From contig JAXLZK010000010.1 of assembly GCA_046350935.1 (NCBI GenBank), positions 18,569 through 82,568 of the forward strand: 64,000 nt of DNA. Reading direction: 5' to 3'. A program made the translations under genes and the position numbers. Positions 23,654 through 59,274 of the stretch are shown piece by piece. The notes under the pieces are model-generated. The model ran no database searches. It had not been told where the DNA came from and was given only the letters and a program-made list of their open reading frames with translations. How positions within the stretch are numbered: position 1 is the stretch's first letter; every line of letters begins with the position of its first letter. This DNA comes from Thermodesulfovibrionales bacterium. Lineage in GTDB: Bacteria > Nitrospirota > Thermodesulfovibrionia > Thermodesulfovibrionales > Dissulfurispiraceae.

Positions 23654-24138
23654 GACAGGACCTCCTTCGGGAAGAAAAAGGAAGGAAAGTGGGAAATGAG
23701 AGAGAAAAGACTCAGAAGCAGAAGATTCCTCTGCCTGCTCCTCATCAGGCACCTGCCTTTGCTCTTCGGACTTACTTCTCAGTTCTAAACTTTTTTTCAA
23801 TGTTCGCCTTTCTCGTCACAGAGGCGTAACTGGAAGGCACTTTCCTCAGAGCGCGCAGCAGAATGCCCGGGCCGGACCGGATATCCCAAAACGGCTCATA
23901 CCAGCCGCCGGCAGGTTGAAAACCGTCTGCGGGGAGCTATGTCTGCTTCTTTTTTTCTGTCTCTTTTCCGCCGACTGCGCAATGACAGGAGAGCGTCCAA
24001 CTGGAGCGCTCTTCCTGAGTCCTCTTTCTGCCTTACTCCCGCAAGCGGAGCGCTGCCGTCACCCGCTCACTCTGTCGATCGCGGCCATACCGTTCCGGAC
24101 ACGGAATGACGTGAACCGGAATGGTTCATTTTTGCCGA

Positions 24139-24589
24139 CTATTCCGTCGTTGAACAGGAACTACACCGTCTCTTCGTTTTGACGAGAACGCCCCCTCGGC
24201 CCCCTTCAGCGGCCCCCTCTACCCTTGACCCGCGCGCCCTCCCGGAGGTGAGGGTAGATGTCGAGCTCCGATCCGCTTTCGACCAGGATCCTGAGGGACC
24301 GACCTCCTCAGGGGGCACCGGGCTTGGGACACCCGGCTTTGCGGAGAGGAGCGCGACGGCGCCCCGCGTTTTCAGCACGGCCACGAAGTCTTCCGACAGG
24401 GGGATATGCACGAAGCAACATCCCGGGAAGAGGGGAGCATCCACCATCTTCCTCCCGTCCTTCCACTGCCTGCACTGCCGGAGGGCCGGGAGATAGGTGT
24501 CGACCCTTCCTCAGCAGCTCGTCCCGGGTGACGAACTCATGCCTCGACCTCACGTGCAGCGCGTACCAGTGCATTTCTTCCGCCGTCAT
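24139..24589 (-). pseudogene. NusG-paralog (RfaH/UpxY-like) transcription antiterminator, at least two or three frameshifts
   Basis: - The NGN-domain start is MTAEEMHWYALHVRSRHEFVTRDELLRKG, in ORF 24308..24589.
- It continues with VDTYLPALRQCRQWKDGRKMVDAPLFPGCCFVHIPLSEDFVAVLKTRGAV, in ORF 24139..24447.
- A KOW-like ..GAEGVLVK.. region is garbled by G-run frame changes.
The 3' end is uncertain. Confidence 0.6.
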
Positions 24590-24609
24590 CGGTGCCCTGT
24601 CCCTTTTCC

Positions 24610-25777: not shown

Positions 25778-25781
25778 TGCT

Positions 25782-26630
25782 CTATGCCTCTCTCTCGGGC
25801 TGCGCTTCGATCCCGGCGTAGCTGTGGTAATACTGCGGAACGCTCGGCCCCGCCGTTTCCAGACCGTTGTAGATGATACCGAGGAGCCTGCTCTGCTGCA
25901 GGATCCCCAGGGAGTCGGAAACGCTCTGCAGAGAGGTCTTCCCTCCTTGACCACGAAAAGCACCCCGTCGACCATGCAGCTTATGGCGTGGGTCTCGGCA
26001 AAGGGGAGGAGAGGAGGCGTGTCGATGATGATGTACCGGTCCGGATACCGCGCCTTCATCTCGACGATCAGCTCCTTCATCCGCTGGGAGGAGAGGAGCT
26101 CCACGGGGTTGCTCACCTTTTTGCCGGCGGGCAGGAACGAGAGCTTGCCGATCCCCGTTTTGATGAGGGAGCCCCCCAGGTCGATTTCGTCGGTGAGGCA
26201 GTCGGCGAGTCCGAACTCCGGCTTGATATTGAAGTAGCCATGCAGGGAGGGCCTCCGAGGTCCGCATCCACCAGGAGGACCGTGTAGTCGTATTCCTGAG
26301 CAAGGGTAACGGCAAGGTTCATGGCCGTGAGGGTCTTTCCCTCCCAGCTCAGGGAGCTGGTGACCATCAGGGTATTTGAGAAGTCCCCTGGTGGGTGATC
26401 TGTACGATCATGGACTTCAGCTTCCGGTACTCTTCGGAGGCGGGGGAGCCGGGGTCCTTCAGGGTGATGATGTAGGGGTTGTCGACGGCAAGAATCTCCT
26501 CGGCGTCGAACACGCTCTCCTTGATGCGCTCACGGACGCGCTCCCTGACGGGCGCCGGGTCCCTGAGGCTCTCCTCTCTGCTGTCCCGAAGCTGCACCGC
26601 TTTTTCGAGGGCCTTCTCAATTCTGCTCAT
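25782..26630 (-). pseudogene. Exopolysaccharide tyrosine autokinase-like P-loop ATPase (BY-kinase, PEP-CTERM-locus type), at least three frameshifts
   Basis: - MSRIEKALEKA...YRKLKSMI is in ORF 26367..26630.
- ..LMVTSSLSWEGKTLTAMNLAVTLAQEYDYTVLLVDADL (Walker A-like) is in ORF 26113..26367.
- ..LSFLPAGKKVSNPVELLSSQRMKELIVEMKARYPDRYIIIDTPPLLPFAE..DGVLFVVKEG is in ORF 25538..26116.
- The C-terminal piece is in ORF 25782..26315. Confidence 0.7.
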
Positions 26631-26698
26631 TCTCTCTCTCCTGTTGTGGTAGTGCGGTGAAAAGACATGCCACGGCGTATCCTGCCCCGCCTCCTCCC

Positions 26699-28248
26699 CT
26701 AGAAGATGCTCTTCAGGTGCCCCGGCAGGCTGACGACGGCGCTGATGAAGTCGTCCACGTAGGAGACGCCCAGCAGCTCCAGGGTGAACACCGCGAGGAT
26801 GCCCGCCATATACGCCCCCGCAAACGTGTAGAGCCGTTTGTCCTTCTTCCGCTGCTCCGCGGTTTCTTCGGGGTTCTGGATGCTCGGGATGACGGCAATC
26901 ACCGGGACCCCGAAGGATTTGAGGAGTCGACCGTTTTCACCGACCTGTCCACGGAGTCGAGCAGGACGACGAGGCCGAAGCCCCCCGCCAGCCCGGCAAG
27001 GATGCCGAACAGCATGATCTTCACCCTGTCGGGGCTCACCGGCTTCATCGGCAGCACCGCGGGGTCCACGATCCGGAAGGTGGAGGCCTTGTCCTGCACC
27101 TCCATCTGCTTCGACACCTCCGCCTGGCCGAGGCGGGCCACGAGCTCCTCATAGATGTTCTTCGTGGTAGCCCGCGCCATCTCGAGGTCGGTAAGGCTCT
27201 TCTTTTCGGCAGGCATGCTCCGCAGATAGGTCTTCTTCGATTCCATGAGCCTCCTGAGCTGTTCGTCCTTTGCCGTAAGGGCCGCCAGCTCGAGGTCTGC
27301 CCTCGTCATCTCCTCCCGCAACTGCTGGAACACCGGGTTCAGCAGCGCCACTTCGCCGTCGGCTGCGCCCGCATCGCTTGCCAACGGGGCCTGCCCGCTC
27401 GCCATCTGGCCCTTCAGGGTCTCTATTTCCGTCCTGACCCTGATCACTTCCGGGTAGTTCGGCGTATAGGTCAGCAGCAGGTCGGTCAGCTTCCTCTGGA
27501 GCGTCAGGACCCTCTCGCCGGGGTCGCCCGACCCTTTCCCCATGATGGCGGCGGTGTAGGGCCTCTCCCCTTCATCTGCCTGAGCATCGTCTTTTTCCGC
27601 GCTTCCAGCTCCCGCCTCTTCATCCTGACCCTTTCGAGCCCTTCCTCCGCCGTTTTTATCTCCTCAACCACCCTGCGGTCGTCCAGCGCGACGAAGATGC
27701 CCTTCTCCTTCCGGAACCTGATGATTTCGTCGTCCGCCCTGTCGAGCTTTTCCTTGAAGAATTTAATCTGCTCCGTGAGGAAGCGGCTCGCGCCGTAGGT
27801 CTCCTCCCTCTTCTCCGACACGTTCTCCTCGATGTACCGCCGCACCAGGGCGTTGACGTAGTCCCGGGCGAGCTGGGGTCCGCATTCCGGAGGAGACGAT
27901 GAAGAGGCCGTTCTCGCTCTTCATCGTGATGTCGGTGTTTTTCTGGAAGTCGGAGACGACTTTTTCCACCTCGGACTGCTTCTTCCTGTTCACCGGAAGG
28001 CCGAGGTCGTCCGCCACCTTCAGGAGGAGGTTCCTGCTGCTCATGGTGTAGGACAGCACCTTGAGCTTCTCCTCAAGGGAGGGGGTGACGGCGATGCCCT
28101 TGATGATCGTGTTGATCATGCTCCGCTCGATGAAGACCGTGCATTTCGCCTCATACTCCTTGGGGAGGAAGTAGCTGGTCAGCACCACCAGGGTGATGAG
28201 GAGAGCACGGAAAGGATGAACACGTACTTCCGCTTCGCTATGAGCTGC
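26699..28248 (-). pseudogene. Polysaccharide chain-length determinant (Wzz/PCP family, PEP-CTERM-locus type), at least four frameshifts
   Basis: - The gene starts at ATG 28248 (MQLIAKRKYVFIL..).
- YFLPKEYEAKCTVFIERSMINTIIKG.. is in ORF 27763..28188.
- The coiled-coil middle is in ORFs 27504..27845 and 26899..27543 (..FRIVDPAVLPMKPVSPDRVKIMLFGILAGLAGGFGLVVLLD).
- The terminal TM segment is in ORF 26699..26902. Confidence 0.7.
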
Positions 28249-28289
28249 ATATACCTTTGAGGTCCACTCCCGACGGTTCCATGCCCCTC

Positions 28290-29087
28290 CTAAAAGATCC
28301 CTTCCTTGACCACGATGTAATCACCGGGCTGAAGCTTCAGGTTCTCGCTCAGCTTTCCGTCCTGGAGCAGGTCCTTCACCTTCACCGTCCGGGCGACCTT
28401 CTGTCCGTCCTTCTGCGTGAAGAGGACGACGTCGTTCTGCTTGGCGAATTCGGAGAACCACCCGGCTGCCAGGATCGCGTCCATTATGGTGATCCCGTCC
28501 CTGTATTCGATGAACTTTGGGCTGTTTACCGCGCCGGCGACATAGACGTTCCGGGAGTCCAGCTCGGGGATGAAGAGGACGTCGCTCGATTCGATCACCA
28601 TATCCTCGGAGACGTCGCCCTCGATAAAGAGCCGGTAGAGGTCCTCCTTCACCTTCTTGCCGCTCCGGAGCACGTACGCCCGGCGCAGGTCGGCGAGCCG
28701 CACCTCCCCGATCTGGCAGAGAAGCTGCAGCAGCGTAGTCCTGCGGTTGAGCTCGTAGACGCCGGGCTTTACCCTCCGCCGAAAACGTACACCTTGCTGT
28801 TGGTAATGCCTTCCACGATCACCGTCACCACAGGGTTACGCACCAGGTCCTTCAGCTTGGCGGTGAGCTGCTTCTGCAGCTCCTGGGGCCAGGCCGCTCG
28901 CGGGCACTTCCCCCAGCGCGGGGATCGTGATCTTCCCGTCCGGCCTCACCTTGACCGAAAGCGAGAGGTCCTTCACCCCCCAGACGGAGATAAAGAGCGT
29001 GTCGCCGTCCCCTATCACGTACTCTCCCGCAAAAGCGGCGGCGGGTGCCAGGAGTCCCAGGAGCAAAAGAATCGCGAGTGCTTTCAT
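28290..29087 (-). pseudogene. Polysaccharide export protein (Wza/Poly_export + SLBB), at least two frameshifts
   Basis: - [61 protein letters not shown] starts at ATG 29087.
- The middle part lies in another frame.
- The C-terminal 137 aa are in ORF 28290..28703 (..VLFIPELDSRNVYVAGAVNSP..LQPGDYIVVKEGIF).
- The ATGA overlap at 29084-29087 couples it to the upstream gene. Confidence 0.75.
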
Positions 29088-30463
29088 ACGTCCTCCTCTA
29101 TCTCCCCCCGTTTGAGCAGGACCACCTTTACCGTCTCCAGGATGATCAGGAGGTCGAGGAAGAGAGAGATGTTTTTGATGTAAAAAAGATCGTAGCGGAG
29201 CTTTTCGATCGTATCCTCCACCGATGCCCCGTAGGGATACTTGATCTGCGCCCACCCGGTGATGCCCGGTTTTACCGTATGCCTCTCCGAATAGTAGGGG
29301 ATGACCCTCTTCAACTTTTCCACGAACTCGGGCCTCTCGGGCCGCGGCCCCACAAAGGACATATCCCCCTGAGCACGTTGTAGAGCTGCGGCAGCTCATC
29401 GAAGCGGTATTTCCGCATGAACCTGCCCACCGCCGTCACGCGCGGGTCGTCCTTCTTCGCCCAGACCGCGCCCGTTCCGCTCTCGGCGTCCCGGCGCATC
29501 GTCCTGAACTTGTACAGGACGAAGTTCCTCTCCCCTGCCCCACCCTGAGCTGACGGAACAGCACCGGCGAGGAAGGGGACTCCATCTTGATGATCAGGGC
29601 GGCGAGCGGGATCACCGGAAGCGCCAGGGTGAGTCCGGCAAGCGCCAGGGGGATGTCGAACGCTCTTTATAGAGCCGCTTGAAGGCGGTCAGCCGGAACC
29701 CGTCCGAAAAGATGAACCAACTGGGGGTTATGTTCTCGATCAGCAGCTTCCCGGTTATCTGCTCGTAGAAGGAGGGTGCGTCCACCACGTCGATGCCGCT
29801 CAGCTTGCAGGCAAGCACATCGCGCAGGGGGAAGACGCCCCGCCTCTCGGACAGCGAGATGACGATTTTATGAGCCTTTTCCTTCTTTGCGGTCTCGATG
29901 AGCCCCCCTCCCGTCTCCCACCACCGTATGGGGAGGCACGAACAGCGGCTCGCGGGGGCAGTTGACGTACCCGGCGAGCACGTAATGGTGGTTCGTCGTC
30001 GCCAGGACTCCCCGATCTGTTTCGCCAAGGGGCCGGTGCCGAGGATGATGACCCTCCGCACAAACCCGGTGAGGGAGAGGAACGCCTTGTGCCCCGCGTG
30101 CCAGAGGGGAAGGAGGAGGCCGGACAGCGCAAGGGATGCGGCGAGCATTCCCCTGTCGAACCGGAAAAAAGGCATAAGGTAATAGAATGAGGAGAGAATG
30201 AAGACGGAAAGCACCAGCGAGATGAAGACCCTGATGAAGATCTCCTTCCGGGTGGTGTTCCCCTCCTGGCTGTACAGCCCGACGAAAAAGAGCGAAAAAA
30301 GGACGACCAGCACGAAGAAGGAAACCCGCGCCGCATTGGATGCCAGCAGGCTCCCCGCATTCGCCGGTTTCCCGGCGGACAGGTACAGCACCACGGAGGC
30401 GGATGCCGCCGAAAGAAAGGCGTCCCCCGAAAGGAGCATCGCGATGAGGAGCCGCACGCTCAT
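29084..30463 (-). pseudogene. Undecaprenyl-phosphate sugar phosphotransferase (bacterial sugar transferase, EpsB/WbaP-like priming enzyme), at least three frameshifts
   Basis: - The N-terminal TM region and CoA-binding-like linker are in ORF 29612..30463.
- ..[34 protein letters not shown] is in ORF 29311..29499.
- [60 protein letters not shown] is in ORF 29084..29362. Confidence 0.8.
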
Positions 30464-33381
30464 CTGCCTCCCCTCAGCTCCGCAAGAAGCACTCTCGCGG
30501 CGCCGGCTTCGGGAAAGTCGCCGGTGCGCACGGCCCTGCTGAGGAGCTCGACGGCCCTGCCCTTGTCGCCCCGCTCCTTCAGGGCAAGGGCCGCATGATA
30601 CTGCACCGTAGGATTGCCCGGGAGGAGGGAGGCGGCCTTTTCGAGCATTTTCGACGCTTCCTCCGTCCTGCCCTTCTTGAGAAGGAGGTATCCCAGGGTA
30701 TCCATTACTTCGGCGTTCCCCGGTGCGATCCGGTATGCCTTCGACGCGAGCGCCAGCGCCTCCTCACTGCTGCCGTGCCCTTCCGCGTACAGGAAAGCGA
30801 GGTTGTTCAGCGCCGGGACATGATCCCCGGACTTCCCGAGGAGCTGGCGGTATTTGGCGACCGCCTCCTTCTTGTTCCCCATGAGGTCGTATACGGTCCC
30901 CATCCCGAACAGGACCGCCACATTCCCCGCATCACGCTTCAGCAGGGACTCGTAGGCGCCGAGGGCAAGGGCGTACTCCCCTTTTCTCGTATAGAGCAAC
31001 GCGAGGGAAGTCCTCACCGCCGCGTCGTCCCCGCTCATCGTGAGCGCCTCTTTCAGGACGCCGATCGCCTTATCCAGATCGTTGCCGCTCTCGAGGACGG
31101 AGGCAAGGACCCGGTAGCCGTAAGGAGAACCGGGCTTCTGCCTGATGAGGGCCGACGCCGTTTCCTCGGCTTTCCGCCGGTCCCCCATCAGCAGGTGCAG
31201 ACGCGCTGCTTCCGCGGCGAGGTCGTCCCTTCCCGGCTGTCTCTGCAGCCTGTCTTCGACTTTCTTCAAGGCCGTCTTGTACTCTCCCGCCTCGATGCAG
31301 GCGTTCACGATCAGGGGAAGGGCCCTGTCGGGATCGTAGGCCTCGATTTTTCCGAATGCGGACAGGGCGTCCCGGTATCTCTTCTCTCCCAGGCGGATCT
31401 TTCCCTTGAGCTCCAGCGCCTCGCTGCTGCGCGGGTCGGCCTGTATCGCTTCGTCCAGCGTCTCGAGCGCCCTGCCGGTGTCCTTTTTCCTGAGATAATA
31501 AGAGGCAAGGGCAAGGACCCCCTGCGCCTGCCTCGACTCGTTCGCCTTCTTGTATACGGCGAGGGCCTCCTGCTCCTTCCCCTTTGCCTCAAGCAGCGCC
31601 GCACTCCCCAGGAGGGCGGCGAGGTTCCCGGGAGAGCGGCGCAGCACCGCCCGGTATTCATCGAGCGCGCTTTCGGAATCGCCTTTTGCGGCGTGATACG
31701 CCGCGATGTTGAAATAAGGGGTGAGATAGTCGGGGTCCGCCTCCTTCGCCTTCCGGAGCTGCCGGAGAGCGTCCGCAGACCTGCCCGCCGCCATGAGGGC
31801 GGCGGCCATGTTGTTATACAGCACCGCGTCCGCCTTGCCGCCCCTGAGCCCTTCGCGCAGGGTCTTCTCCGCCTTCCCGTACTCCTTCGTCTTCAGATAA
31901 TACGAGGCCAGGACCAGGCGCGTATTCAGCACGTCGGGAGTGATGCGCACGGCAGTGCTCAGCTCTGTTTCCGCCTCGGTGAGCCTGCCCCTGTTGAGGT
32001 GGTACAGGCCTTTCTTGATGTGGATTTCCACCAGTTTCGGGTCGAGGGCCGCCGCCTTGTCCAGCTCCGCCATGCCCTCGTCGTAGAGCCCCTTTGCCAT
32101 ATAGGCGCTGCCGAGGATATTGCGGGCGAGGGCGTTGTCCCTGCCGTCCCCGAGCGCCTTTTTCGCCTCGGTGATGGCGTCGTCCGTCCGCTTCTGCTGC
32201 AGGAGCACCAGGGCGACGAGTATCCGGGCCTGGGTAAAGGAGGGGGTGAGGTCGAGGGCCCTCTGCAACTGGCTCAGGGCCTGCTCCGGCTCGTTCCGGT
32301 AGTAGTGGCTGAGCCCCAGGAAATAATATCCGCCGCTGCTGGGAGAGAGGGACAAAGACTTCTGGAGGGCGATGACGGCGTCGTTGAACTGCTTGCGGTA
32401 GAAGAGCGCCATCCCTTTCAGGCTGTATCCCTGCGCGTCGTGCGGGAAGTCCCGGATGAGGGCCTCCGACAGGGCGAGAGCAGGCCCGTGCTGCCCTTTC
32501 CCTATCAGGAGCACGCCCTTTTTGAAAGGAGCATCCACAAGGGAGGGATGCGCCGCAATAATCCTGTCGTACGTCGCCAGCGCCTCGTCGGTCGCATGCT
32601 CGGAGGTCTGGATGCTTGCTAGGAGGAACAGGGCGTCTTTCTGGGCGGGCTCCCTGCGGAGTACGTCCGCGATCTGGCGCTTCGCCCCGTCCTTCTCCCC
32701 CCTCATCAGAAAGACCCGGGCAAGGGCCACGGCCGCGGAGCTCCTGCCGCCGTCCTGCCGGAGGCTCCTTCTCAGAAGCTCCACCGCCTCCGGGAGCTCC
32801 CCTTTCAGGGCGCGTGCCCATCCGGAGATCTCGAGGACCTCCGCCGCGGAGGCGGCGTTTCCGCCGAGCGCGCCGAGCTCGCGCAGCGCCTCGTCAGGCT
32901 TGTTCTTCTGTACATGGATGCGGGCGAGCTCGATGTGCGCCTCCGGGAAGGAGGGGCTCTGCAGCACCACCTTTCCCAGCTCCCTCTCCGCGGCGTCGTT
33001 GTTTCCCGCACGGGCGTACGCACGGGCAAGCTGGAAGCGGGCCTCGAAGAAATTCGGGTCCTCCTCCAGGGCGTTCCTGAGGAGCACGACGGCGCCACGG
33101 GGGTTGTTCTCCTGCAGCATCTGCACTCCCTTCCTGAAGAGCTGCTCCTTGCCCCCGCTCCCTTTTTCTGAACAGCCCGTGCCGAGGAGGAGCAGGAAAA
33201 GGACCGCCGAGGTGAGTGCCGAGAGCGTTCCGGCAGTCCGCTGAAAAACGACTGTAGTGTCATTGCGAGGAGCTTTTTTGCGACGAAGCAATCTCCAACC
33301 GACCGATTTCATCAGAGGCGGGATTGCTTCGCTCCGCTCGCAATGACGGAAGAACGACTTTTTCAGCGCCCTGCTAGACAA
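30460..33381 (-). CDS. prsT: PEP-CTERM system TPR-repeat lipoprotein (PrsT-like)
   Basis: Intact 973-aa ORF made almost entirely of TPR repeats. The lipobox is LLLLGTGCS. Its stop overlaps the next start (ATGA at 30460-30463). The start is ambiguous: TTG 33381 overlaps the upstream stop, and ATG 33312 is the alternative. Both lie in or upstream of a palindromic element. Confidence 0.85.
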   Translation of the reverse strand: MSSRALKKSFFRHCERSEAIPPLMKSVGWRLLRRKKAPRNDTTVVFQRTAGTLSALTSAVLFLLLLGTGCSEKGSGGKEQLFRKGVQMLQENNPRGAVVLLRNALEEDPNFFEARFQLARAYARAGNNDAAERELGKVVLQSPSFPEAHIELARIHVQKNKPDEALRELGALGGNAASAAEVLEISGWARALKGELPEAVELLRRSLRQDGGRSSAAVALARVFLMRGEKDGAKRQIADVLRREPAQKDALFLLASIQTSEHATDEALATYDRIIAAHPSLVDAPFKKGVLLIGKGQHGPALALSEALIRDFPHDAQGYSLKGMALFYRKQFNDAVIALQKSLSLSPSSGGYYFLGLSHYYRNEPEQALSQLQRALDLTPSFTQARILVALVLLQQKRTDDAITEAKKALGDGRDNALARNILGSAYMAKGLYDEGMAELDKAAALDPKLVEIHIKKGLYHLNRGRLTEAETELSTAVRITPDVLNTRLVLASYYLKTKEYGKAEKTLREGLRGGKADAVLYNNMAAALMAAGRSADALRQLRKAKEADPDYLTPYFNIAAYHAAKGDSESALDEYRAVLRRSPGNLAALLGSAALLEAKGKEQEALAVYKKANESRQAQGVLALASYYLRKKDTGRALETLDEAIQADPRSSEALELKGKIRLGEKRYRDALSAFGKIEAYDPDRALPLIVNACIEAGEYKTALKKVEDRLQRQPGRDDLAAEAARLHLLMGDRRKAEETASALIRQKPGSPYGYRVLASVLESGNDLDKAIGVLKEALTMSGDDAAVRTSLALLYTRKGEYALALGAYESLLKRDAGNVAVLFGMGTVYDLMGNKKEAVAKYRQLLGKSGDHVPALNNLAFLYAEGHGSSEEALALASKAYRIAPGNAEVMDTLGYLLLKKGRTEEASKMLEKAASLLPGNPTVQYHAALALKERGDKGRAVELLSRAVRTGDFPEAGAARVLLAELRGGR
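33241..33370. repeat. Imperfect ~130-bp palindromic (MITE/REP-like) element inside the 5' end of prsT
   Basis: - The outer arms are CTGAAAAACGAC..GTCATTGCGAG (33241-33269) and CTCGCAATGAC..GTCGTTCTT..TTTTTCAG (33337-33366, with mismatches).
- The inner arms are GAAGCAATC (33286-33294) and GATTGCTTC (33322-33330).
- On the minus strand it translates as ..FFRHCERSEAIPP..RRKKAPRNDTT.. Confidence 0.6.
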
Positions 33382-33754
33382 TGTTGTATCCCCCCTGGAT
33401 GGTGCTCAGTTCTCCGTCCATCACCTGCCGCACCAGAAGCCGGAACTTGCGGTAGTCGAGCGGCTTGATCATGCAGTAGGAATTGCAGAAGCCTTCGAGT
33501 ATGCTGATAAGGTCTCCGTTAATGTGGTCGGAGAGGATTATGGTGGCGATGTTCTGCCGTTTGATTTCCTCGAAAATGAAAATGCCGTAGGGATAGCTGG
33601 TAATGATCAACCCGAAGTCCCTGTCGTTCAGACGCACGCCGATCCCGTTCGCATCGGTCGCCGCCTCTATACCGTAGCCTTCGAACTCGAGAATTGCCGA
33701 ACAGATGCGGGAAAAGCCCTCCTCATCGACGATGAGTATCTTTTTTTCTCCCAT
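33374..33754 (-). CDS. Stand-alone receiver (REC) domain protein lacking the phospho-acceptor Asp
   Basis: MGEKKILIVDEEGFSRICSAILEFEGYGIEAATDANGIGVRLNDRDFGLIITSYPYG...MIKPLD has a CheY-like fold pattern. The conserved Lys is present (KP). The DxxMP acceptor position reads ITSYP. The start is taken at ATG 33754; the track ORF extends to 33892. Confidence 0.7.
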   Translation of the reverse strand: MGEKKILIVDEEGFSRICSAILEFEGYGIEAATDANGIGVRLNDRDFGLIITSYPYGIFIFEEIKRQNIATIILSDHINGDLISILEGFCNSYCMIKPLDYRKFRLLVRQVMDGELSTIQGGYNIV

Positions 33755-34118
33755 AGACACGGGGAAGAGCAAGATCGATGCCTGCGGGGAGCGGGAAAGC
33801 GCCGTCATGCCGCACGGAGCGGGACAATGCAGGGAAAACAGCGCCTTGGGAAGCAAAAGACAGCGGGCGTCCTGGACAGGCAGCGCCCGCACTCCTCTCT
33901 TTCCGCAGCTCCGCTGCGGAATCGGGGGCTTTGGAGAGCCCTTCTCCGCTCTCTCCTGTTTCCATCGGATACAGCGAGAACAAACCTGTTGGAATATATG
34001 AGCGTAATAATGTATCTTTCGGACACAGCATCCTCCGGAAGCGGCATTTTCCTTCTTATAAGCGCCAAAAGTGTTTCTGAGGGAAACAAGAAGGGGAGGC
34101 GGTGGAAGCGGGGTGCTC

Positions 34119-35468
34119 CTACGGGAGCGGGAGGTCCCGCAGCTTCTTGTAAAAGGCTTTCCGCGAGATCCCGAGCATTCGGGCTGCCTTCGACTTGTTG
34201 CCGTTGCATCTGTTCAGGGTCTCGCGGACCGCGTGGACTTCGAGCTGTTTCAGGGTGCGGAGGGGTACGGAGAGCTCCCGGTGCCTCCGGGTGCGGAACT
34301 CCTCCGGGAGCTCACGGGAGGTTATCATCTCTCCTTTCACCAGGACGACGGCCCTCTCGATCACGTTTTTCAGTTGTCGTATGTTGCCCGGCCACGGGTG
34401 TTCCCTGAAGAGCCGCATCACCTCGTCCGCAATTTTGATTGCCTTCTTCTCCCGGATGCAGAATTCGTTGAGAAACTCCGCCGCCAGCAGCGGGATGTCG
34501 TCCCTCCTCTCCCGGAGAGGGGGGACGTCGATATGCACCACGTTGATGCGATAAAAGAGGTCCTCCCGGAAGGTCCCCTCCCCCACCTCTTTCAGCAGGT
34601 CGCGGTTGGTGGAGCAAATGAGCCTGAAATCGGCCTTTATCTTCCGGTTGCTCCCGAGCCGCTCGATCTCTTTTTCCTGGAGGGCGCGGAGCAGCTTTGC
34701 CTGAAGGGAGAGCTCGAGCTCCCCTATCTCGTCGAGAAACACCGAACCGCCCGCGGCCTCCTCGAACCGCCCGATTCTCCGCGCCACCGCCCCGGTAAAC
34801 GCACCCTTCTCATACCCGAAGAGCTCCGATTCGATCAGCTCCTTGGGGATGGCTGCACAGTTCACCGCGATGAACGGGTTGCTTCCGCGGGTGCTGCTGT
34901 AGTGAAGAGCGCGGGCGATCAGCTCCTTGCCCGTTCCCGTTTCCCCGGTGATCAGGACACTGCTGGAAGAGTCTCGCACCGCCTCGATGGTTTCGATGAT
35001 GCCCAGCATGACGGGCGCGTTGCTGATAATGCGGACGGAAGGGCTTTCCGACGAGAGCTTCCGCCGCAGGTTCTCCAGCTCCCTCTTCAGCCGCCGCTGC
35101 TCCACCGCCCGGGAAAGGATGCTCTTCAGCTTTACGTAGTCGGGGGGCTTGATGAAGTAGTAGAAAGCCCCGTGGGTGATGGTCGTCACCGCGGACTCCA
35201 CGGTGCCGTATGCGGTGAGAAATATCACGGGGATGTCGGGGTGTGTATCGGAGACGTACTGAAAAAACTGCATCCCGTCTCTCCCCGGCATTTTCAGGTC
35301 CGTGATGACCGTATCGATATCCTCGGAGGCGACGACGGAGACGGCTTCGTCCACCTCCCTCGCCTCGAAAACACTGTATCCGCCGTCCGAAAGGATCGCC
35401 GAAAGGACCCTGCGCGCATTGGGGTCGTCGTCGATGATCAGGACACGTCCGTTGCAGCTCTCGTTCAT
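34119..35468 (-). CDS. Sigma-54-dependent response regulator (NtrC family; PrsR-like candidate)
   Basis: - Intact 449-aa ORF.
- The REC domain has [19 protein letters not shown].
- The AAA+ module has [21 protein letters not shown] and the [15 protein letters not shown] loop.
- The C-terminal Fis-type HTH is [22 protein letters not shown]. Confidence 0.9.
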
Positions 35469-35660
35469 TGCCTTCTCCTTGCGGCGCGTCAGGTGCGGCC
35501 TGTCTCGTACGAATGCGCTCTCAGGGCGCGGTCCCGTCCTGCAGGGTGCGGGGATGCGAAGCCGGAGAGGGAAAGGAGCAGACGCCCTTCCCTCCGCGTC
35601 CGCCCTGCCGGGGGTTCCGGAGAAGAGTACGATGCGGGGTGCGAATGTATTCCCTTTGCA

Positions 35661-36806
35661 TTATGGCCGGTAGTCCGCGGGGTGCGTCCTGTCTCTGTCC
35701 TGTGCCGGAAAATACAGACGCACCACCGTACCGGCATCCTTCTTGCTCTTGATTTCCATATGCCCCTTGTAGTACTGGATGATTTCACGGGTGATGAAAA
35801 GTCCGAACCCCCTTCCCTTGTCCCCGGAAAGGCCGGCCTCCCTGTTTTCGGAAATGCCCGGACCCGTATCCGTGATCTCCACGAGGACGAAATCGGTATC
35901 GAAGCGCTTTTCATGCGCTGTCCTGATGGCTAGGCGCCCGCCCGGGCTCATGGCCTCTATGGCGTTGTTGATCACGTTCAGGACCGCCTGCTCGAACTGG
36001 AAGGCCTCGATGGTTACCAGGGGGATGTCCCCGTATTCGTACACCGTCTCGATGTTTCCCGCATAGGCCTGCATGGAGGTGAACACTTCGATCCTCTTCA
36101 ACAGCGAATTGATGTCCGACCCGGTCAGCGCGGCGTCGGGGACGGAGGCGCTGAGGAAGCGCGAGATGAAATTGTCGAGGCGCGATATCTCGTCCTCCAT
36201 GATCCGGGTGAACTCGATAAGGGTCTGCTCGCTGGCGTATTTCTCGCGGAGGTGCACCACTGCTCCCTTGATCGCATTCAAGGGGTTTCTGACGCCGTGG
36301 GCGAGCGTCGAAGCCGTCTTGCCGATATCGATGATCCGCTGCAGGTTCTGGAGCTTGATCGCCATGAGACAGGTGGAGTAGGGAAAGAAGGAGACCATCA
36401 GGCTCCTGACCTTGCCGTGCATGTCGCGCACCGGCTCGACAGAGACGTCGGCATCGATCTGCCCGTGCAGGCAGTTGAAGGAGTACCGCTTGAAGGCCAA
36501 CGCCTTATTCCTCTTTACCGCGGTGGAAAGCGCGTCCCTCTCTTCCAGGACGATGCGCGGGAGCACCTCGAAATACTTTTTCCCCATTGCGGTCAGGGGA
36601 GGTCGTCCTGTCAGCTCGGCAATCCGTTCGTCCCAGACGCTGATACGCAGTCTGTTGTCCGTATAAAAAGTGTATGATTGCCCCGCCCTGCCGCTTTTCT
36701 GAATCGAACACTGTGCCGTAGAGGATACCATCAGTCCGTGCTGGAGCACTTCGCAACCCCGTTTTCGCAGTATTTTTACGCCTGTCCCGCACCGGATGCG
36801 GAGCAC
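35661..36806 (-). CDS. Cytoplasmic PAS-domain sensor histidine kinase (NtrB-like)
   Basis: The H-box is TLAHGVRNPLNAIKG. The ATP-binding domain has NVINNAIEAM, ITDTGPGI and GRGFGLFITREII. No TM segments are evident. The start is uncertain: 36806, or ATG 36731 (MVSSTAQ). Confidence 0.8.
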   Translation of the reverse strand: MLRIRCGTGVKILRKRGCEVLQHGLMVSSTAQCSIQKSGRAGQSYTFYTDNRLRISVWDERIAELTGRPPLTAMGKKYFEVLPRIVLEERDALSTAVKRNKALAFKRYSFNCLHGQIDADVSVEPVRDMHGKVRSLMVSFFPYSTCLMAIKLQNLQRIIDIGKTASTLAHGVRNPLNAIKGAVVHLREKYASEQTLIEFTRIMEDEISRLDNFISRFLSASVPDAALTGSDINSLLKRIEVFTSMQAYAGNIETVYEYGDIPLVTIEAFQFEQAVLNVINNAIEAMSPGGRLAIRTAHEKRFDTDFVLVEITDTGPGISENREAGLSGDKGRGFGLFITREIIQYYKGHMEIKSKKDAGTVVRLYFPAQDRDRTHPADYRP

Positions 36807-37067
36807 ACAGGGCCTCGGGAGGGGGCGACCGCCCCTCTACTAGATAGTACAAACCATATATATCAACTTTAGCCGAAAATGGGAAAAAGTCAAGCTGGAG
36901 ACTCGCGAAAGGGCATTCCCCTTCTGCCGGAAAACCGGACACTTCTCTTTTGGTAAAAATTAGGACATTTCTAAATTGGCTTGACAACATTCCATTTTCC
37001 TCTTGCAAATCCCCTCCTCCATTCATAAAATAATGCTCTTACCGTTTGAGAAGATTTGTTGCAGTAC

Positions 37068-37084
37068 AGGCGATCATTTTGCAT
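37068..37084 (+). promoter_or_regulatory. Candidate sigma-54 promoter upstream of the radical-SAM gene
   Basis: The site is aGGCGAtcattTTGCAt. GG (37069-70) and GC (37081-82) are separated by exactly 10 nt and the -12 TTGCA is perfect. The -24 half is weaker (GGCGA against GGCAC). It lies about 80 nt upstream of ATG 37161. Confidence 0.4.
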
Positions 37085-37160
37085 TTTGCAATGACAAGGG
37101 ACGACGCACCGGGTGAACAGACCCCATCCCGGCACTTTGTACCGAAGAGGAGAACAGGGA

Positions 37161-38612
37161 ATGCCGCCGCAAAAACCCGAAATTACCTTTATTTCGCCGT
37201 ACGAGGACATCACCGCATACAGCGTACGGCTGCTCTCTGCCGTCCTGCGGGAGCAGGGGTATCCCACCCGGATCGTCTTCGCCCCTTCCATTCTCGAGGA
37301 AGGGGGCTCTGAGCAGGCGTCCCTGGAGAAACTTGCCGGAGAGATCCGGCAGGTGGCCGCCGGGTCCTCCCTCATCGGGTTCTCCTTCTTCTCGTGCCAT
37401 CTGCCCTTCGTCGCCGCTCTGAGCAGGGAGGTGAAGAAGAGGATAAGCACCCCTCTCCTGTGGGGAGGCAAACATATCACCGCCCAGCCGGACGACGCGG
37501 CGGGATACGCAGACATGGTCTGTATCGGGGAGGGGGAGCTCTCCCTGACAGCGCTCCTGCAGGCCGTCGGAAACGGCGGGGACCCCTCTTCCCTCGCCGG
37601 CATCTGGCCGGTCCGGGACGGGACGGTCACGAAAGGCCTGATCGCCTCCATCGTCCGGGACCTCGACTCCCTTCCCTTCCCCGACTTCTCGATGGAGGGG
37701 CACTATCTATGGGACAACAGCACGCTGGTAGAGCTGTCGGCGCCCCTCATGGAGGAGCAGATCCGGAAGAGCTGCCGTGACAAGACCCTCTACTACCAGA
37801 CCATGGCTTCGCGGGGCTGCTCCTATAGCTGTTCCTATTGCTACCATTTCAAGGAGCTGTACAAGGGGCAGCACTACCTGAGGAAAAGGAGCCATGGCAA
37901 CGTGATCGAAGAGGTCCGTTCGATGCTGGAGAAGTTTCCCTTTTTCGAGGAAGTCTGCCTCTCGGACGACAACTTCTTTTCCCATGACACTGCGCAACTC
38001 CGGGAGTTCGCCGCCCTGTACCGTGAGAAGATCGGAAAGCCGCTCCGCTGCCTGGCCCATCCTCACGAAATCAACAGGGAGAAGCTCGCAATCCTGACAG
38101 ACGCCGGTCTGCAGGAGCTCCAGGTGGGCATCCAGACGGGGAGCAGGAGCACTCTGAAGCTGTACCGGCGGGGACCCTCGCCCGAGAAGGTCCTGGAAGC
38201 GGTTGCTATCGTCAACGAATTCAAGGACCGGCTGACGCCCTACTACGACTTCATCATCGACAACCCGTATGAGGAGAGGAAGGATGTCCTGGAGACCCTG
38301 CGCCTGATCACCCGCTTCCCGCGCCCCTATCGCCTCAACGTCTTCTCCCTCACCTTCTTTCCGGGCACGGAGCTGTACGGCAAGGCGCTCCGGGACGGGC
38401 GGATTGCGGACAGCACCAAGACCTGGCAGTTCAGCGGGAAAAGCTATCTCAATTTTCTCTTCCTGCACATCTTCACCCGCTCCTTTCCCCAGTGGCTCCT
38501 CCGTCTCCTCCTCTCGAAGCCCGCCGTCGCCCTGCTTGACAACAAGCCGGCCGCCTCCCTTCTCTACTCGCTGAAGGGATTCCTCAAGAAAACGCTGCAC
38601 CGGGCTTCCTAG
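37161..38612 (+). CDS. B12-binding-domain radical SAM protein
   Basis: The N-terminal part is cobalamin-binding-like (ITFISPYEDITAYSVRLLSAVLREQGY..). The radical SAM cluster motif is RGCSYSCSYCYH (CxxxCxxC). ATG 37161 has a GAGGAG SD; the track ORF begins at 37113. Confidence 0.8.
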   Translation: MPPQKPEITFISPYEDITAYSVRLLSAVLREQGYPTRIVFAPSILEEGGSEQASLEKLAGEIRQVAAGSSLIGFSFFSCHLPFVAALSREVKKRISTPLLWGGKHITAQPDDAAGYADMVCIGEGELSLTALLQAVGNGGDPSSLAGIWPVRDGTVTKGLIASIVRDLDSLPFPDFSMEGHYLWDNSTLVELSAPLMEEQIRKSCRDKTLYYQTMASRGCSYSCSYCYHFKELYKGQHYLRKRSHGNVIEEVRSMLEKFPFFEEVCLSDDNFFSHDTAQLREFAALYREKIGKPLRCLAHPHEINREKLAILTDAGLQELQVGIQTGSRSTLKLYRRGPSPEKVLEAVAIVNEFKDRLTPYYDFIIDNPYEERKDVLETLRLITRFPRPYRLNVFSLTFFPGTELYGKALRDGRIADSTKTWQFSGKSYLNFLFLHIFTRSFPQWLLRLLLSKPAVALLDNKPAASLLYSLKGFLKKTLHRAS

Positions 38613-38746
38613 CGGGTGTATTTCTGTAAAGTCTTCCGTCGCGTGTAAGAATATCCGCCGCCCTTTTATCGGAATTGTTTACAGATATGCCCCGCTGCGC
38701 GGAGGGCGCCCCCGCAATTCCCTTCCACATCAACCCTCTGCGTAAC

Positions 38747-38762
38747 TGGCATGGGGATTGCT
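38747..38762 (+). promoter_or_regulatory. Sigma-54 (-24/-12) promoter upstream of the PEP-CTERM protein gene
   Basis: The site TGGCATggggaTTGCTt is a near-perfect match to TGGCAC-N5-TTGCW, with GG and GC 10 nt apart. It lies about 170 nt upstream of ATG 38931, in an otherwise non-coding gap. Confidence 0.7.
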
Positions 38763-38930
38763 TTTAAATTGCTGACGGATGCTCTTCGATTGCTGTCAGC
38801 GGTGAAAGAGAACCTGAGCCGGCCCCTGCGTCTTTCCTTCCCCTCCCCTCGCGCATCGAAAATCATCGCCCTTGAACAAAGCGGCCCTTTTCAAGGGCCG
38901 ACCATTCAAGCACAAAAGGAGGTGAGAAAG

Positions 38931-39773
38931 ATGAAAAAAACATCTGTTGTATGCGCAGCCGTCCTTGCGGTCTTTCTGACCGCTGCAGCTGCGCCGCATG
39001 CACAGGCAGCGCCCCTGCTCGGTATCGATCCGACGGGCAGCGGGGCCTACAGTGTGCATACCGATCTTATGACCCATATGACGGACACCGGGCTCCTCAC
39101 ATCCGGAGCACAGAACACGATGGAGTTCATCTACCAGGGACGCGTCGGCACCCTGCAATTCACAGGGACACCGCTCACTCCCGCCGCACTGAACAACTCC
39201 TACGAGCTCACTATTCAGACACGGCTGCCCGAATCCATCACCAACCAGGTCTCCCTCGCCGATTCGCAGGGAGCGGTCCATCAGACTACCCTGCTGGGCA
39301 GTGCGCAGAACAGTGAGGCACTGGTGGAGATGTTTTTCGATTCCTCGCCCGATGCGAACCCGAAAAACGGCTCCGGCTACGGCGACGGGGTAAAGGTGCT
39401 CACCGGGCGTCTGCAGAGCATGGATGCCCTCCTCGATACCGTTGCCGCACCGCAGGGAGCGAGGACCTCCAACGGCTCCTTTACCGCCCATTTCACTATC
39501 GATACGGTCAACGGGGCATACCTCGACATCACCAACGCCGGCATCACCGGCCTCACCATGACAGGGACGATGAATGAGCCTCCCTTCTTTACGCCCGCCT
39601 CCCTCTGGGACGGTACTGCGTCGGCAGGGGGGACCCTGGTGAAGGTGGATGCGTCCACCTCTTTTACCGCCTCCGGGCCTTCCGCCGTCATCCCGGAGCC
39701 CTCCACCCTCCTGCTCCTCGGAGCGGGAATGCTGGGCCTGCTCGGGGCCTCGCGCAGGAGGAAGAGTACGTAG
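38931..39773 (+). CDS. PEP-CTERM sorting-domain secreted protein
   Basis: - The strong SD AAAGGAGGTG lies 7 nt before ATG 38931.
- The signal peptide is MKKTSVVCAAVLAVFLTAAAAPHAQA.
- The C-terminus VIPEPSTLLLLGAGMLGLLGASRRRKST has the PEP motif, a TM helix and a basic tail. Confidence 0.9.
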   Translation: MKKTSVVCAAVLAVFLTAAAAPHAQAAPLLGIDPTGSGAYSVHTDLMTHMTDTGLLTSGAQNTMEFIYQGRVGTLQFTGTPLTPAALNNSYELTIQTRLPESITNQVSLADSQGAVHQTTLLGSAQNSEALVEMFFDSSPDANPKNGSGYGDGVKVLTGRLQSMDALLDTVAAPQGARTSNGSFTAHFTIDTVNGAYLDITNAGITGLTMTGTMNEPPFFTPASLWDGTASAGGTLVKVDASTSFTASGPSAVIPEPSTLLLLGAGMLGLLGASRRRKST

Positions 39774-39788
39774 GAGACGCCCTGTTCA

Positions 39789-39814
39789 GGACGACGCCGG
39801 AAGCGGCGTCGTCC
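39789..39814 (+). terminator. Strong GC hairpin after the PEP-CTERM gene (terminator or mRNA-stabilising stem, no U-tract)
   Basis: GGACGACGCCG-GAAG-CGGCGTCGTCC forms an 11-bp perfect stem with a GNRA-type loop. It starts 16 nt after the stop and is followed by GCTCTCC, not a T-run. Confidence 0.45.
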
Positions 39815-39827
39815 GCTCTCCTCCCGT

Positions 39828-39857
39828 TTGACAGGAGCCACATTCTACTGATTTAAT
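39828..39857 (+). promoter_or_regulatory. Candidate sigma-70 promoter for ilvE (would give a leaderless or near-leaderless mRNA)
   Basis: TTGACA (39828-33), an 18-nt spacer, then TTTAAT (39852-57). Only 7 nt separate the -10 from ATG 39865, and no Shine-Dalgarno is visible. Confidence 0.35.
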
Positions 39858-39864
39858 AAAACGT

Positions 39865-40782
39865 ATGATCAACAAGACGGAAAAAATATGGATGAACGGA
39901 AAACTGATCGATTGGGAGAGCGCCACCGTCCATATTATGACCCATACCCTCCATTACGGACTCGGCGCCTTCGAGGGCATCCGCTGCTACAAGACCCCGA
40001 AAGGCCCCGCTATCTTCAGGCTCGATGAGCATGTGCGGAGGCTCTTTCATTCCGCGCACATCTTCCTTATGGAGATCCCCTATTCGGAGGAGGAAATCAG
40101 AAAGGCGCTCGTAGAAACGGTGCGGGCGAACAGACTTGAGGAGTGCTACCTGCGGCCCCTCGTGTATATCGGGTATGGGGCGATGGGCCTCTACCCAAGA
40201 GGGAACCCTATCCAGGTCGCTGTTGCCGCATGGCCGTGGGGTGCGTATCTGGGCGAGGACGGGCTCGAGAAAGGCATACGGGTAAAAGTATCGTCCTTTG
40301 TCCGGAACCATGTCAACTCACAGATGTCCCGCGGCAAGATCTGCGGCTACTATGTCAATTCCCAGATCGCGAAAAAGGAGGCCGTCTCCTGCGGGTACGA
40401 TGAAGCCCTGCTTCTCGATACTGAAGGCTATGTGGCTGAGGGGAGCGGGGAGAACATCTTCATTGTGCGGAACGGAATCCTGAAAACCACCCCCCTCACC
40501 TCGGTCCTGGAAGGCATCACCCGCAGCAGCATCATGAGCCTCGCAAAGGACGCGGGGATGGAAGTACGGGAGGAGCGGTTCACCCGCGATGAAGTCTACA
40601 TCTGCGACGAGGCGTTCTTTACCGGCACCGCTGCGGAGGTCACGCCTATCAGGGAGCTGGACAGCAGAACGATCGGAGAGGGCAGGGCGGGCACCGTGAC
40701 CCGGAAGCTGCAGAAGCTATTCTTCGATGCGGTAAAGGGCAGGAACAAAAAGTACGGCTCCTGGCTCACGTATGTGAAGTAG
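39865..40782 (+). CDS. ilvE: Branched-chain amino acid aminotransferase
   Basis: Intact 305-aa ORF reading [80 protein letters not shown]. This is the class IV aminotransferase pattern. Confidence 0.9.
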
Positions 40783-40807
40783 TTGGGAGGCGCGGCAGGA
40801 ATAAAAA

Positions 40808-40836
40808 GGGCGGCCGTACGGTCGCCCCTTTTTTGT
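40808..40836. terminator. Bidirectional Rho-independent terminator between ilvE (+) and the cytochrome gene (-)
   Basis: GGGCGGCCG-TA-CGGTCGCCC forms a stem with one G.T pair. It is flanked by AAAAA on the left and TTTTTTG on the right, so both transcripts end in a U-run. Confidence 0.75.
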
Positions 40837-40850
40837 GCTGCTCTGCCACT

Positions 40851-41168
40851 TTATTTCTTGTGGCACTTCGCACAGTTGTCCTTGTCGGTGGTGTTGAAGG
40901 CCTTCGTGCCGTCATGGCATGCACCGCAATTCTTGCCTTCCTTCATCTCCGCCATCGTTAGCTTGGCGGAGCCCTTCTTCATCTGGAAGATCTTGGTGTG
41001 ACAGTCATTGCACTTCAGGCCCTTGTCGGCATGAGTCTTCCCGTCAAAGGTGACCTTCCCCGCCCCGCCGCCGGCGAACTCCACAACCTTGCCCGGAGGA
41101 ACAGCCATGGCGCTTCCGATAAACACCACAGCGATCAAAACAGTTAAAATTGCCGCAAAAATCCTCAT
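40851..41168 (-). CDS. Periplasmic triheme cytochrome c (c7/c3 family, PpcA-like)
   Basis: The signal peptide is MRIFAAILTVLIAVVFIGSAMA. Three CxxCH motifs are present (CNDCH, CGACH, CAKCH) in about 80 mature residues. ATG 41168 has a GGGGGTGA SD; the track ORF extends to 41225. Confidence 0.85.
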   Translation of the reverse strand: MRIFAAILTVLIAVVFIGSAMAVPPGKVVEFAGGGAGKVTFDGKTHADKGLKCNDCHTKIFQMKKGSAKLTMAEMKEGKNCGACHDGTKAFNTTDKDNCAKCHKK

Positions 41169-41202
41169 GTACTCACCCCCTTTCCCTTTTGGAATAGATA
41201 TT

Positions 41203-41218
41203 AGCAACAAACGTGCCA
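41203..41218 (-). promoter_or_regulatory. Sigma-54 (-24/-12) promoter for the cytochrome gene
   Basis: The minus strand reads TGGCACgtttgTTGCT, a perfect consensus. The -12 GC lies about 36 nt upstream of ATG 41168, leaving a leader of about 23 nt with its SD. Confidence 0.75.
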
Positions 41219-41354
41219 CCCGCATTCCCCTTAAGTCTACTACATTTTTCGCGGGAGCAAAAGCTCTTTTTTCCCCTTTTGGGGAGGTGTCTCTCCGAAA
41301 AGGAAAGCATGCCCCGCCTCTGTGCGCGCCCGGAGCGGGGAATTCCCTTCCGGA

Positions 41355-45513: not shown

Positions 45514-45587
45514 GCGCCCATAGCTCAGCTGGATAGAGCGTCAGACTACGAATCTGCAGGCCGGGGGTTCGAATCCCTCTGGGCGCG
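45514..45587 (+). tRNA. tRNA-Arg (anticodon ACG)
   Basis: - Hand-folded cloverleaf.
- The acceptor stem pairs GCGCCCA with TGGGCGC.
- The D arm is GCTC-AGCTGGATA-GAGC.
- The anticodon loop is CT-ACG-AA.
- The T arm is GGGGG-TTCGAAT-CCCTC.
- No CCA is encoded. Confidence 0.9.
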
Positions 45588-48475: not shown

Positions 48476-48626
48476 GGTGTGCAGGCGGATTGTGTTTGCG
48501 GCGAGGCCGGGCGCCCGGCACACGGACAGGGCGACCGCAGCAGAACAGTCTTTCTGCATATCCTGACGGCACGGTACTTGCTCCTTTTACCGTCCTGTAT
48601 CCGACACCCTGAAAGGGAGGTATGCT

Positions 48627-59188: not shown

Positions 59189-59274
<86 letters not shown>

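Follow-up and report, generated by a model that had tools for sequence, protein, structure and literature searches.

Do the sigma-54 (-24/-12) promoters that surround a PEP-CTERM gene answer to the sigma-54 activator encoded beside them? The question is raised by a 64-kb stretch of DNA from a Thermodesulfovibrionales bacterium (the window), in which positions 34119–41218 hold a gene for a PepA-like PEP-CTERM protein, a radical-SAM gene and a gene for a three-heme cytochrome, with a sigma-54-dependent response regulator and its kinase encoded 3 kb away at the head of an exopolysaccharide (EPS) locus. An earlier reading of the same DNA (the original prediction) placed one sigma-54 promoter before each of the three genes, treated them as a single local regulon with the neighbouring pair, and saw in this a fit to the PrsK/PrsR idea of sigma-54-controlled PEP-CTERM substrates. 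We arrive at a different answer, and hold it to be somewhat better than an even bet that three sigma-54 promoters of this interval belong to three separate enhancer circuits: one for the PEP-CTERM gene, one for the cytochrome gene, and one for the EPS export operon, whose promoter is absent from the original prediction.

We scored both strands of the window with an approximate sigma-54 weight matrix for GG and GC elements spaced by 10 nt within TGGCAC-N5-TTGCW, and obtained chance levels from first-order Markov simulations of the window (n = 300). The two best scores in the 64 kb belonged to TGGCACgtttgTTGCT at 41218–41203 on the minus strand (17.6 bits), upstream of the cytochrome gene, and to TGGCATggggaTTGCT at 38747–38762 on the plus strand (17.5 bits), upstream of the PEP-CTERM gene; the next site scored 14.3 bits. 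Sites of 17 bits or more occurred in the simulations at 0.033 per window, and two in one window were seen in 0 of 300. Both strings are those that the original prediction had named as near-consensus promoters, and both sites are conserved in relatives. A loose consensus search allowing up to two mismatches was uninformative, with 18 matches against 22 expected; what marks sigma-54 here is two well-placed, high-scoring sites rather than a surplus of sites. Genes were mapped using third-position GC content and family scans in place of longest open reading frames (ORFs), which we rejected as gene calls; GC-rich antisense ORFs were mis-called by that route (for example, 34071–35933 on the plus strand). 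For comparison, we fetched related loci by PepA identity (L002 and L003, 82%; L004, 75%; L005, 47%; L010, 46%), others through homologues of the regulator (L012, L013), and a set of 80 with PrsT at their centre; L001 is a contig from another sample. The closest homologues of PepA, the regulator and PrsT are in metagenome-assembled genomes (MAGs) labelled Nitrospirales, Nitrospirota, Dissulfurispiraceae or Thermodesulfovibrionales, and we rejected the Geobacter origin that the c7 cytochrome might suggest.

The PEP-CTERM gene (38931–39773, plus strand) encodes a protein with a signal peptide and the C-terminal sorting signal VIPEPSTLLLLGAGMLGLLGASRRRKST, the sole PEP-CTERM tail in the window. 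The protein passes PF07589 and TIGR02595 (28.4 against a cut-off of 16), and aligns over its full length with the PepA model NF033554, scoring 74.8 against a cut-off of 80. The gap before the gene is 318 nt long, and an 11-bp hairpin lies 3' of it (39789–39814). At the orthologous promoter position, L002, L004, L005 and L010 hold a site of 14.8–17.7 bits. When we aligned this promoter across the window, L001, L002, L004 and L005 (L010 being excluded from the alignment), GG and TTGC were invariant, and the mean column identity was 68%. Transcription is predicted to start near 38773, giving a leader of ~158 nt. Just downstream of the promoter, the -12 hexamer ATTGCT is repeated at 38769 and 38791, and it recurs three times in L002 and L004. 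The predicted leader also contains a hairpin, CGGCCC-TTTTCAA-GGGCCG at 38882–38900, ~30 nt ahead of the pepA ribosome-binding site, which may be a leader-RNA structure; its loop and 3–6 bp of its stem are kept in L002 and L004.

The same alignment contains a second conserved element, CGGAAnnnTTTACAG. Its consensus, CGGAWnnnYTTACA (motif 1), occurs three times upstream of the PEP-CTERM promoter: a proximal forward copy, CGGAATTGTTTACA at 38670–38683, 63 nt before TGGCAT; a reverse copy, CGGATATTCTTACA at 38644–38657 on the minus strand, kept in L002 and L004; and a distal reverse copy, CGGAAGACTTTACA at 38625–38638 on the minus strand, which pairs with the proximal copy as an inverted repeat. 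A repeat finder independently returned that inverted repeat, with 24-nt arms at 38615–38638 and 38670–38693. The three copies are the only ones in the 64 kb, where 0–0.19 are expected. Their spacing recurs in L002, L004, L005, L006 and L008, and L006 (an Oxalobacteraceae genome) and L008 (a metagenome contig) carry the same motif and spacing before PEP-CTERM genes. Over all fetched loci, we counted 34 such PEP-CTERM boxes, with spacers of 47–64 nt, mostly 59–64 nt. This arrangement matches that described by Haft et al. (2006, BMC Biol 4:29, PMC1569441): a 17-nt motif, in some cases repeated, that ends in TTTACA and is followed after 62.8 ± 10.6 nt by a -24/-12 motif, fronting proteobacterial single-gene PEP-CTERM operons with long upstream gaps. 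The 63-nt spacer of the window falls inside this range; note that motif 1 was matched to the published description rather than to the logo, and was checked against the boxes of L006 and L008. By its sequence, the region upstream of the PEP-CTERM gene is a canonical PEP-CTERM box, in agreement with the earlier proposal that the gene is sigma-54-controlled in the manner of Haft's PrsK/PrsR/PrsT systems. Restriction of the box to Proteobacteria with PrsK, PrsR and PrsT does not hold, the closest relatives here being labelled Nitrospirota: the architecture is kept outside Proteobacteria, in a window where PrsT is present and PrsK and PrsR were not found.

A different activator site had been suggested for this promoter, the inverted repeat GGAATTG (38671–38677) and CAATTCC (38715–38721). 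The repeat is present, but it is the weaker of the two in the gap and is not conserved as a pair; its left arm is the middle of the proximal motif 1, and its right arm is lost in L005. We therefore rejected it as an enhancer, regarding it as a mis-parse of motif 1. Of 62 related loci without the local kinase/regulator pair, 21 also have PEP-CTERM boxes, among them loci of Geomonas, Citrifermentans and Pelotalea, indicating that motif 1 is independent of the local regulator.

We then asked what the local pair is. The regulator (34119–35468, minus strand) is an NtrC-family sigma-54 activator with a receiver domain (Asp57), an AAA+ domain (GAFTGA at residue 222) and a Fis-type helix-turn-helix (HTH), and passes PF00072, PF00158 and PF02954. 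Its partner (35661–36806, minus strand) is a soluble histidine kinase with PAS, HisKA and HATPase domains, whose likely start, ATG 36731, was adopted from the gene call of L001. Family scans thus bear out the presence of a sigma-54 response regulator and kinase at the head of the EPS locus, and do not bear out their identification as PrsR and PrsK. The regulator aligned end to end with the PrsR model TIGR02915 but scored 408.1 against a cut-off of 502.6, and scored higher, 483.6, against the AtoC model. Six orthologues of the regulator scored 385–409 on TIGR02915, against 655 and 622 for the true PrsR of L020 and of L090. The kinase matched the PrsK model TIGR02916 over the ATPase core only, with 46.1 against a cut-off of 300, and it has no membrane helix (maximum 19-residue hydropathy 1.2), whereas PrsK carries a multi-pass membrane sensor domain at its N-terminus. 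Further evidence comes from L020, a Thermodesulfovibrionales MAG in which the pair lies upstream of PrsT while PrsK (694 residues; 551 bits on TIGR02916, cut-off 300) and PrsR (13243–14616) are encoded immediately downstream; the regulator of the window is 38% identical to this PrsR. The recognition helix of the regulator is unlike that of PrsR (ISRPTLYDLM), and both helices are conserved in their respective groups. A scan of the 60-residue HTH fragment against NCBIfam gave PrsR and AtoC scores within 2 bits of each other. These comparisons place the regulator outside PrsR and the soluble PAS kinase outside PrsK.

The pair is part of a cassette with a fixed order, namely kinase, regulator, a 126-residue receiver-like protein and PrsT, which we found at more than 20 loci in Nitrospirota, some Desulfuromonadales and Geobacteraceae, and one Deferribacteres MAG; regulator orthologues in these loci are 54–90% identical. 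Because its regulator reaches no NCBIfam equivalog, this second sigma-54 cassette next to PrsT has apparently not been curated. The kinase and regulator genes are 192 nt apart (35469–35660) in the window and in L002, and overlap in L010, L012 and L013. Neither PrsK nor PrsR was found in the 64-kb window, nor were rpoN (or an RpoN-box protein) and a second activator. The absence of PrsK/PrsR from a stretch of this length is unremarkable, because in Geobacter sulfurreducens the pair and the exosortase gene are ~40 locus-tag numbers apart (PMC7726332). The GAFTGA activator encoded in the window implies that the genome has rpoN.

The likeliest target of the local pair lies just downstream of the regulator gene, where the gap before the receiver-like gene contains three 17-bp palindromes, TGTnTCC-N3-GGAnACA (33957–33973, 34011–34027 and 34072–34088). 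The window has no others, where 0.02–0.1 copies are expected, and the three are candidate enhancer sites for the adjacent regulator. Of 26 testable cassette loci, 21 have one or more palindromes, in every case between the regulator and receiver-like genes; only two palindromes occurred in 58 PrsT loci without the cassette (853 kb). Within the same gap, we identified a sigma-54 promoter, AGGCATcgatcTTGCT at 33783–33768 on the minus strand, 13 nt before ATG 33754. At 12.6 bits it is weak by score alone, yet it is conserved: GGCA and TTGCT are invariant in five aligned relatives, against 43% identity in the rest of the gap, and 20 of the 26 testable cassette loci have a sigma-54 site of at least 11.8 bits within 80 nt of the start of the receiver-like gene. 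The co-occurrence of the palindromes with the local pair points to the operon downstream, and we infer that the regulator binds them and drives expression of the receiver-like protein, PrsT and the EPS genes.

The first gene of this operon (33374–33754, minus strand) encodes the 126-residue protein, which gave weak receiver matches only and lies between the regulator and PrsT at more than 20 loci. It has Ser in place of the phospho-acceptor Asp (LIITSYP), suggesting that it is probably a pseudo-receiver. The predicted mRNA of this gene has no Shine-Dalgarno sequence. It is followed by PrsT, the tetratricopeptide-repeat lipoprotein of the XrtA/PEP-CTERM system (30460–33381, minus strand; 625.9 on TIGR02917, cut-off 312.2), whose alignment spans positions 5–897 of the 899-position model. 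Next to PrsT are XrtA-type EPS genes (TIGR03013, TIGR03027, TIGR03007, TIGR03018 and TIGR03015). No exosortase (XrtA/EpsH) was matched among the ORFs scanned, a search that covered the frame-broken region at 13–30 kb only in part. The EPS genes at 24100–30460, for the TIGR03013 transferase, an export protein, a chain-length determinant, a tyrosine kinase, an ATPase and a NusG-like protein, are split over several reading frames by comparison with the intact proteins of L012, reflecting either pseudogenes or local assembly indel errors; the genes of 30.4–43 kb are intact. An Rfam scan of 33–42 kb gave no match.

The cytochrome promoter carries neither of these upstream elements: we searched it for motif 1 and for the palindromes, and neither is present. 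By contrast, it has a conserved element of its own, CCTCCCCAAAAGGGGAAAA at 41269–41287 on the minus strand, ~50 nt upstream, within which CCTCMAAAAGGKAAGA is shared by the window, L002, L004, L005 and L012 between flanks that have diverged. The simplest account of this arrangement is a third activator, for which CCTCCCCAAAAGGGGAAAA is a candidate enhancer. The sigma-54 site lies 32–34 nt before the cytochrome ATG in L001, L002, L004, L005 and L012; in the window, transcription is predicted to start near 41192, with a leader of ~24 nt containing a Shine-Dalgarno sequence. The gene itself (40851–41168, minus strand) encodes a periplasmic c7 cytochrome with three CxxCH motifs (PF14522, 70.9; TIGR04257, 84.1). 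It lies between ilvE (39865–40782, plus strand) and gatB (from 41355, minus strand), is bounded by a bidirectional terminator at 40808–40827, and is most likely transcribed alone. L005 (17587–18456) and L012 (3999–4869) have two tandem c7 genes, the second of which carries TTGACA-17-TATAGT, and the window keeps only the sigma-54 copy. The sigma-54 promoter stays with the gatB-proximal copy even in L005, which has no cassette within 10 kb of pepA.

The third promoter of the original prediction, before the B12/radical-SAM gene (37161–38612, plus strand), fared differently. The string GGCGAtcattTTGCA is confirmed at 37069–37083 on the plus strand, but the corresponding site, aGGCGAtcattTTGCA at 37068–37083, scored 7.6 bits, and 37 sites at least that good were found in the window against 46 expected, so that the match is not above chance. 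Nor is it conserved: at this position L002, L003 and L004 lack GG, and L002 and L003 also lack TTGC. In our reading the site is not a promoter; L001 has AGGCAAT here, at 11.9 bits, and a young promoter is a slim possibility. A sigma-70-like TTGCAA-17-TAAAAT (37003–37031, plus strand), 37 nt upstream of the third site, also precedes the radical-SAM gene; both of its hexamers are kept in L002, L003 and L004.

The gap that holds these sequences, between the kinase and radical-SAM genes, is a fusion. On the left it corresponds to the kinase-proximal end of the gap between the kinase and a molybdopterin oxidoreductase in L002, and on the right to the methyltransferase/radical-SAM intergenic gap. 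Relatives have an extra block here (glmS, a CPBP protease, the molybdopterin oxidoreductase and a Methyltransf_33 enzyme), corresponding to 36880–36960 of the window against 4560–8220 of L002 and 640–6745 of L004. The block is driven by a kinase-adjacent sigma-54 promoter, TGGAAT/C-N5-TTGCT; this promoter and the genes are missing from the window. We considered motif 1 at this kinase-divergent promoter of the glmS or molybdopterin oxidoreductase operon, and rejected it as inconsistent between relatives: TTTACAG lies 37 nt upstream in L012, and neither L004 nor L013 has a copy.

Taken together, these observations suggest the following arrangement. A PrsR-type activator, encoded outside the window, would bind the motif-1 copies and contact sigma-54 polymerase by DNA looping, and the PEP-CTERM promoter would then fire a single-gene transcript for the PepA-like secreted protein. 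The local soluble PAS kinase would phosphorylate the adjacent NtrC-family regulator, which would bind the three palindromes just downstream of its own gene and activate the promoter at 33783–33768, and with it the pseudo-receiver, PrsT and the EPS export operon. A third activator would drive the cytochrome gene from 41218–41203 via its different upstream element. The sites, their conservation, the motif layouts, the family scores and the co-occurrence counts are observed; every protein–DNA assignment and transcription start in this scheme is inferred.

Several observations weigh against this scheme. PrsR, PrsK, the exosortase and rpoN were all unfound in the 64 kb, and PrsR is assumed to be in the source genome from the presence of PrsT and a PEP-CTERM box. 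The promoter at 33783–33768 lacks the T of TGG, and its position 13 nt from the ATG implies a leader of ~3 nt, which is unusual. The palindromes lie inside cassette DNA, and so their co-occurrence with the pair is partly co-inheritance and no proof of binding. The sigma-54 matrix is an approximation based on the Barrios 1999 consensus rather than the published matrix, the relatives compared are non-independent samples, and all transcription starts given are predictions. Moreover, the cassette often adjoins box-carrying genes (in the window, L002, L010, L012, L013 and L016–L019), a proximity that would also fit a regulator acting on motif 1.

This last observation is accommodated by a reading in which the local regulator took over motif 1, replacing PrsR and possibly acting on the palindromes as well, such that the PEP-CTERM gene and the prsT-EPS operon form one regulon with the cytochrome gene outside it. 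Consistent with such a replacement, searches of the window, and of ±10 kb in the close relatives L002, L010, L012 and L013, turned up no PrsR, the PEP-CTERM gene of L010 is directly divergent from the kinase, and motif 1 and the palindrome have short sub-strings in common (TGT, TTCC/GGAA and ACAG). However, the half-site spacing of motif 1 differs from that of the palindrome by 6 nt, and the recognition helix is unlike that of PrsR at conserved positions. Absence over 64 kb says little, given the distance between PrsK/PrsR and the exosortase gene in G. sulfurreducens (PMC7726332), and PrsT, which is present here, is in the profile of Haft et al. always paired with PrsK and PrsR (PMC1569441). 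We regard a takeover as unlikely. The reading in the original prediction goes further, with the pair as an equivalent of PrsK/PrsR that activates the PEP-CTERM, cytochrome and radical-SAM promoters together. It draws on a pair 3 kb away that adjoins PrsT, on a conserved kinase–regulator–receiver–PrsT order that is often divergent from box-carrying genes, and on the end-to-end, 408-bit alignment with TIGR02915. That score is nevertheless under the PrsR cut-off, the kinase lacks the PrsK sensor domain, and a genuine PrsK and PrsR occur alongside the pair in L020. Each of the three promoters has an upstream element of its own, unrelated to the others, boxes are frequent at loci without the pair, and the radical-SAM site is unconserved and at chance level. 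What survives of the single regulon is two real, conserved promoters, and we consider the regulon itself improbable.

A more sceptical reading is that the promoter matches are fortuitous or non-functional and that the genes use other promoters. The sites are known here from sequence alone, the loose consensus count is not enriched, and no rpoN was found in the window, all of which would fit. Against this, two sites of at least 17 bits were found where 0.03 are expected; both are in gaps, correctly oriented, conserved, and at a fixed distance from the ATG or from motif 1; and the window encodes a bona fide GAFTGA sigma-54 activator. Chance matches are thus a very remote explanation. The reading with three separate enhancer circuits is the one we retain.

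Outside the interval, the third-best sigma-54 match in the window, CGGCACggtacTTGCT at 48567–48582 on the plus strand (14.3 bits), lies in a gap 44 nt before the Shine-Dalgarno sequence and ATG (48627) of a 209-residue ORF without a Pfam match, and may be a further sigma-54 promoter. Rfam scans identified an int-alpA RNA and two tRNA genes at 53140–53203 (plus strand), 59202–59274 (minus strand) and 45514–45587 (plus strand). Together with the low third-position GC content of the ORFs at ~53.7–59 kb (0.47–0.63, against ~0.8 elsewhere), these genes suggest an integrated mobile element next to a tRNA.

The findings extend the PEP-CTERM-box architecture, a proposal of 2006 for which Aquincola and Zoogloea are the only tested cases, outside Proteobacteria with its spacing unchanged, and they indicate that the activator beside PrsT in these lineages differs from the one that the literature would lead annotators to assume. 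It is a distinct possibility, although we would stop short of calling it probable, that the soluble PAS kinase, the NtrC-family activator and the pseudo-receiver constitute a second sigma-54 module that is distinct from PrsK/PrsR and undescribed; its range may take in XrtA/PEP-CTERM EPS loci of Nitrospirota, some Desulfuromonadales and a Deferribacteres MAG. If so, the module would switch on the prsT-EPS operon via three TGTTTCC-N3-GGAAACA enhancers and a promoter yielding an almost leaderless mRNA, and the export of matrix polysaccharide and the supply of PEP-CTERM protein would each be under a signal of its own. For uncultured Nitrospirota, the scheme yields testable predictions on the control of matrix polysaccharide and of a periplasmic electron carrier, comprising three transcription starts, two enhancer motifs and two DNA-binding domains. 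The understanding of sigma-54 systems in general is unchanged.

Compared with known systems, the PEP-CTERM gene of the window is closest to those described by Haft et al., having a single-gene operon, a repeated TTTACA-ending motif ~63 nt before the -24/-12 element, PrsT and XrtA-type EPS genes. It differs in that its host is labelled Nitrospirota, whereas Haft's DNA motif was found only in Proteobacteria (PMC1569441), and in that no PrsK/PrsR was found in the window, the pair beside PrsT being a different orthologous group. Among top-ranked papers on PEP-CTERM together with Nitrospirota, nothing relevant was found. The pepA gene of Aquincola tertiaricarbonis is likewise PepA-like, with a -24/-12 promoter, an upstream enhancer and prsT nearby; its dependence on RpoN1 has been shown experimentally and its start mapped (PMC9850573), whereas the promoter in the window is predicted. 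Aquincola prsT is transcribed independently of rpoN1 (PMC9850573), whereas prsT in the window lies behind its own conserved sigma-54 site. The local pair resembles NtrC/AtoC/ZraR-type systems in its receiver, AAA+ (GAFTGA) and Fis-type HTH domains, its partner kinase, and the several dyad sites 170–300 nt upstream of a -24/-12 promoter. It reaches no curated equivalog of this type (AtoC 484, cut-off 714; NtrC 424, cut-off 559), its kinase is soluble with a PAS domain, and its target operon would open with a pseudo-receiver. The palindrome, written as TGT-N11-ACA, resembles the NifA enhancer, TGT-N10-ACA, with a different spacing. Finally, the cytochrome shares with Geobacter-type c7 cytochromes (the PpcA family) the Cytochrome_C7 family, three CxxCH motifs and a signal peptide, but scored 22 against a cut-off of 120 on the equivalog NF043011, and has a sigma-54 promoter. 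The kind of promoter found before the PEP-CTERM gene is thus already known, and the newest element of the locus is the second cassette beside PrsT.

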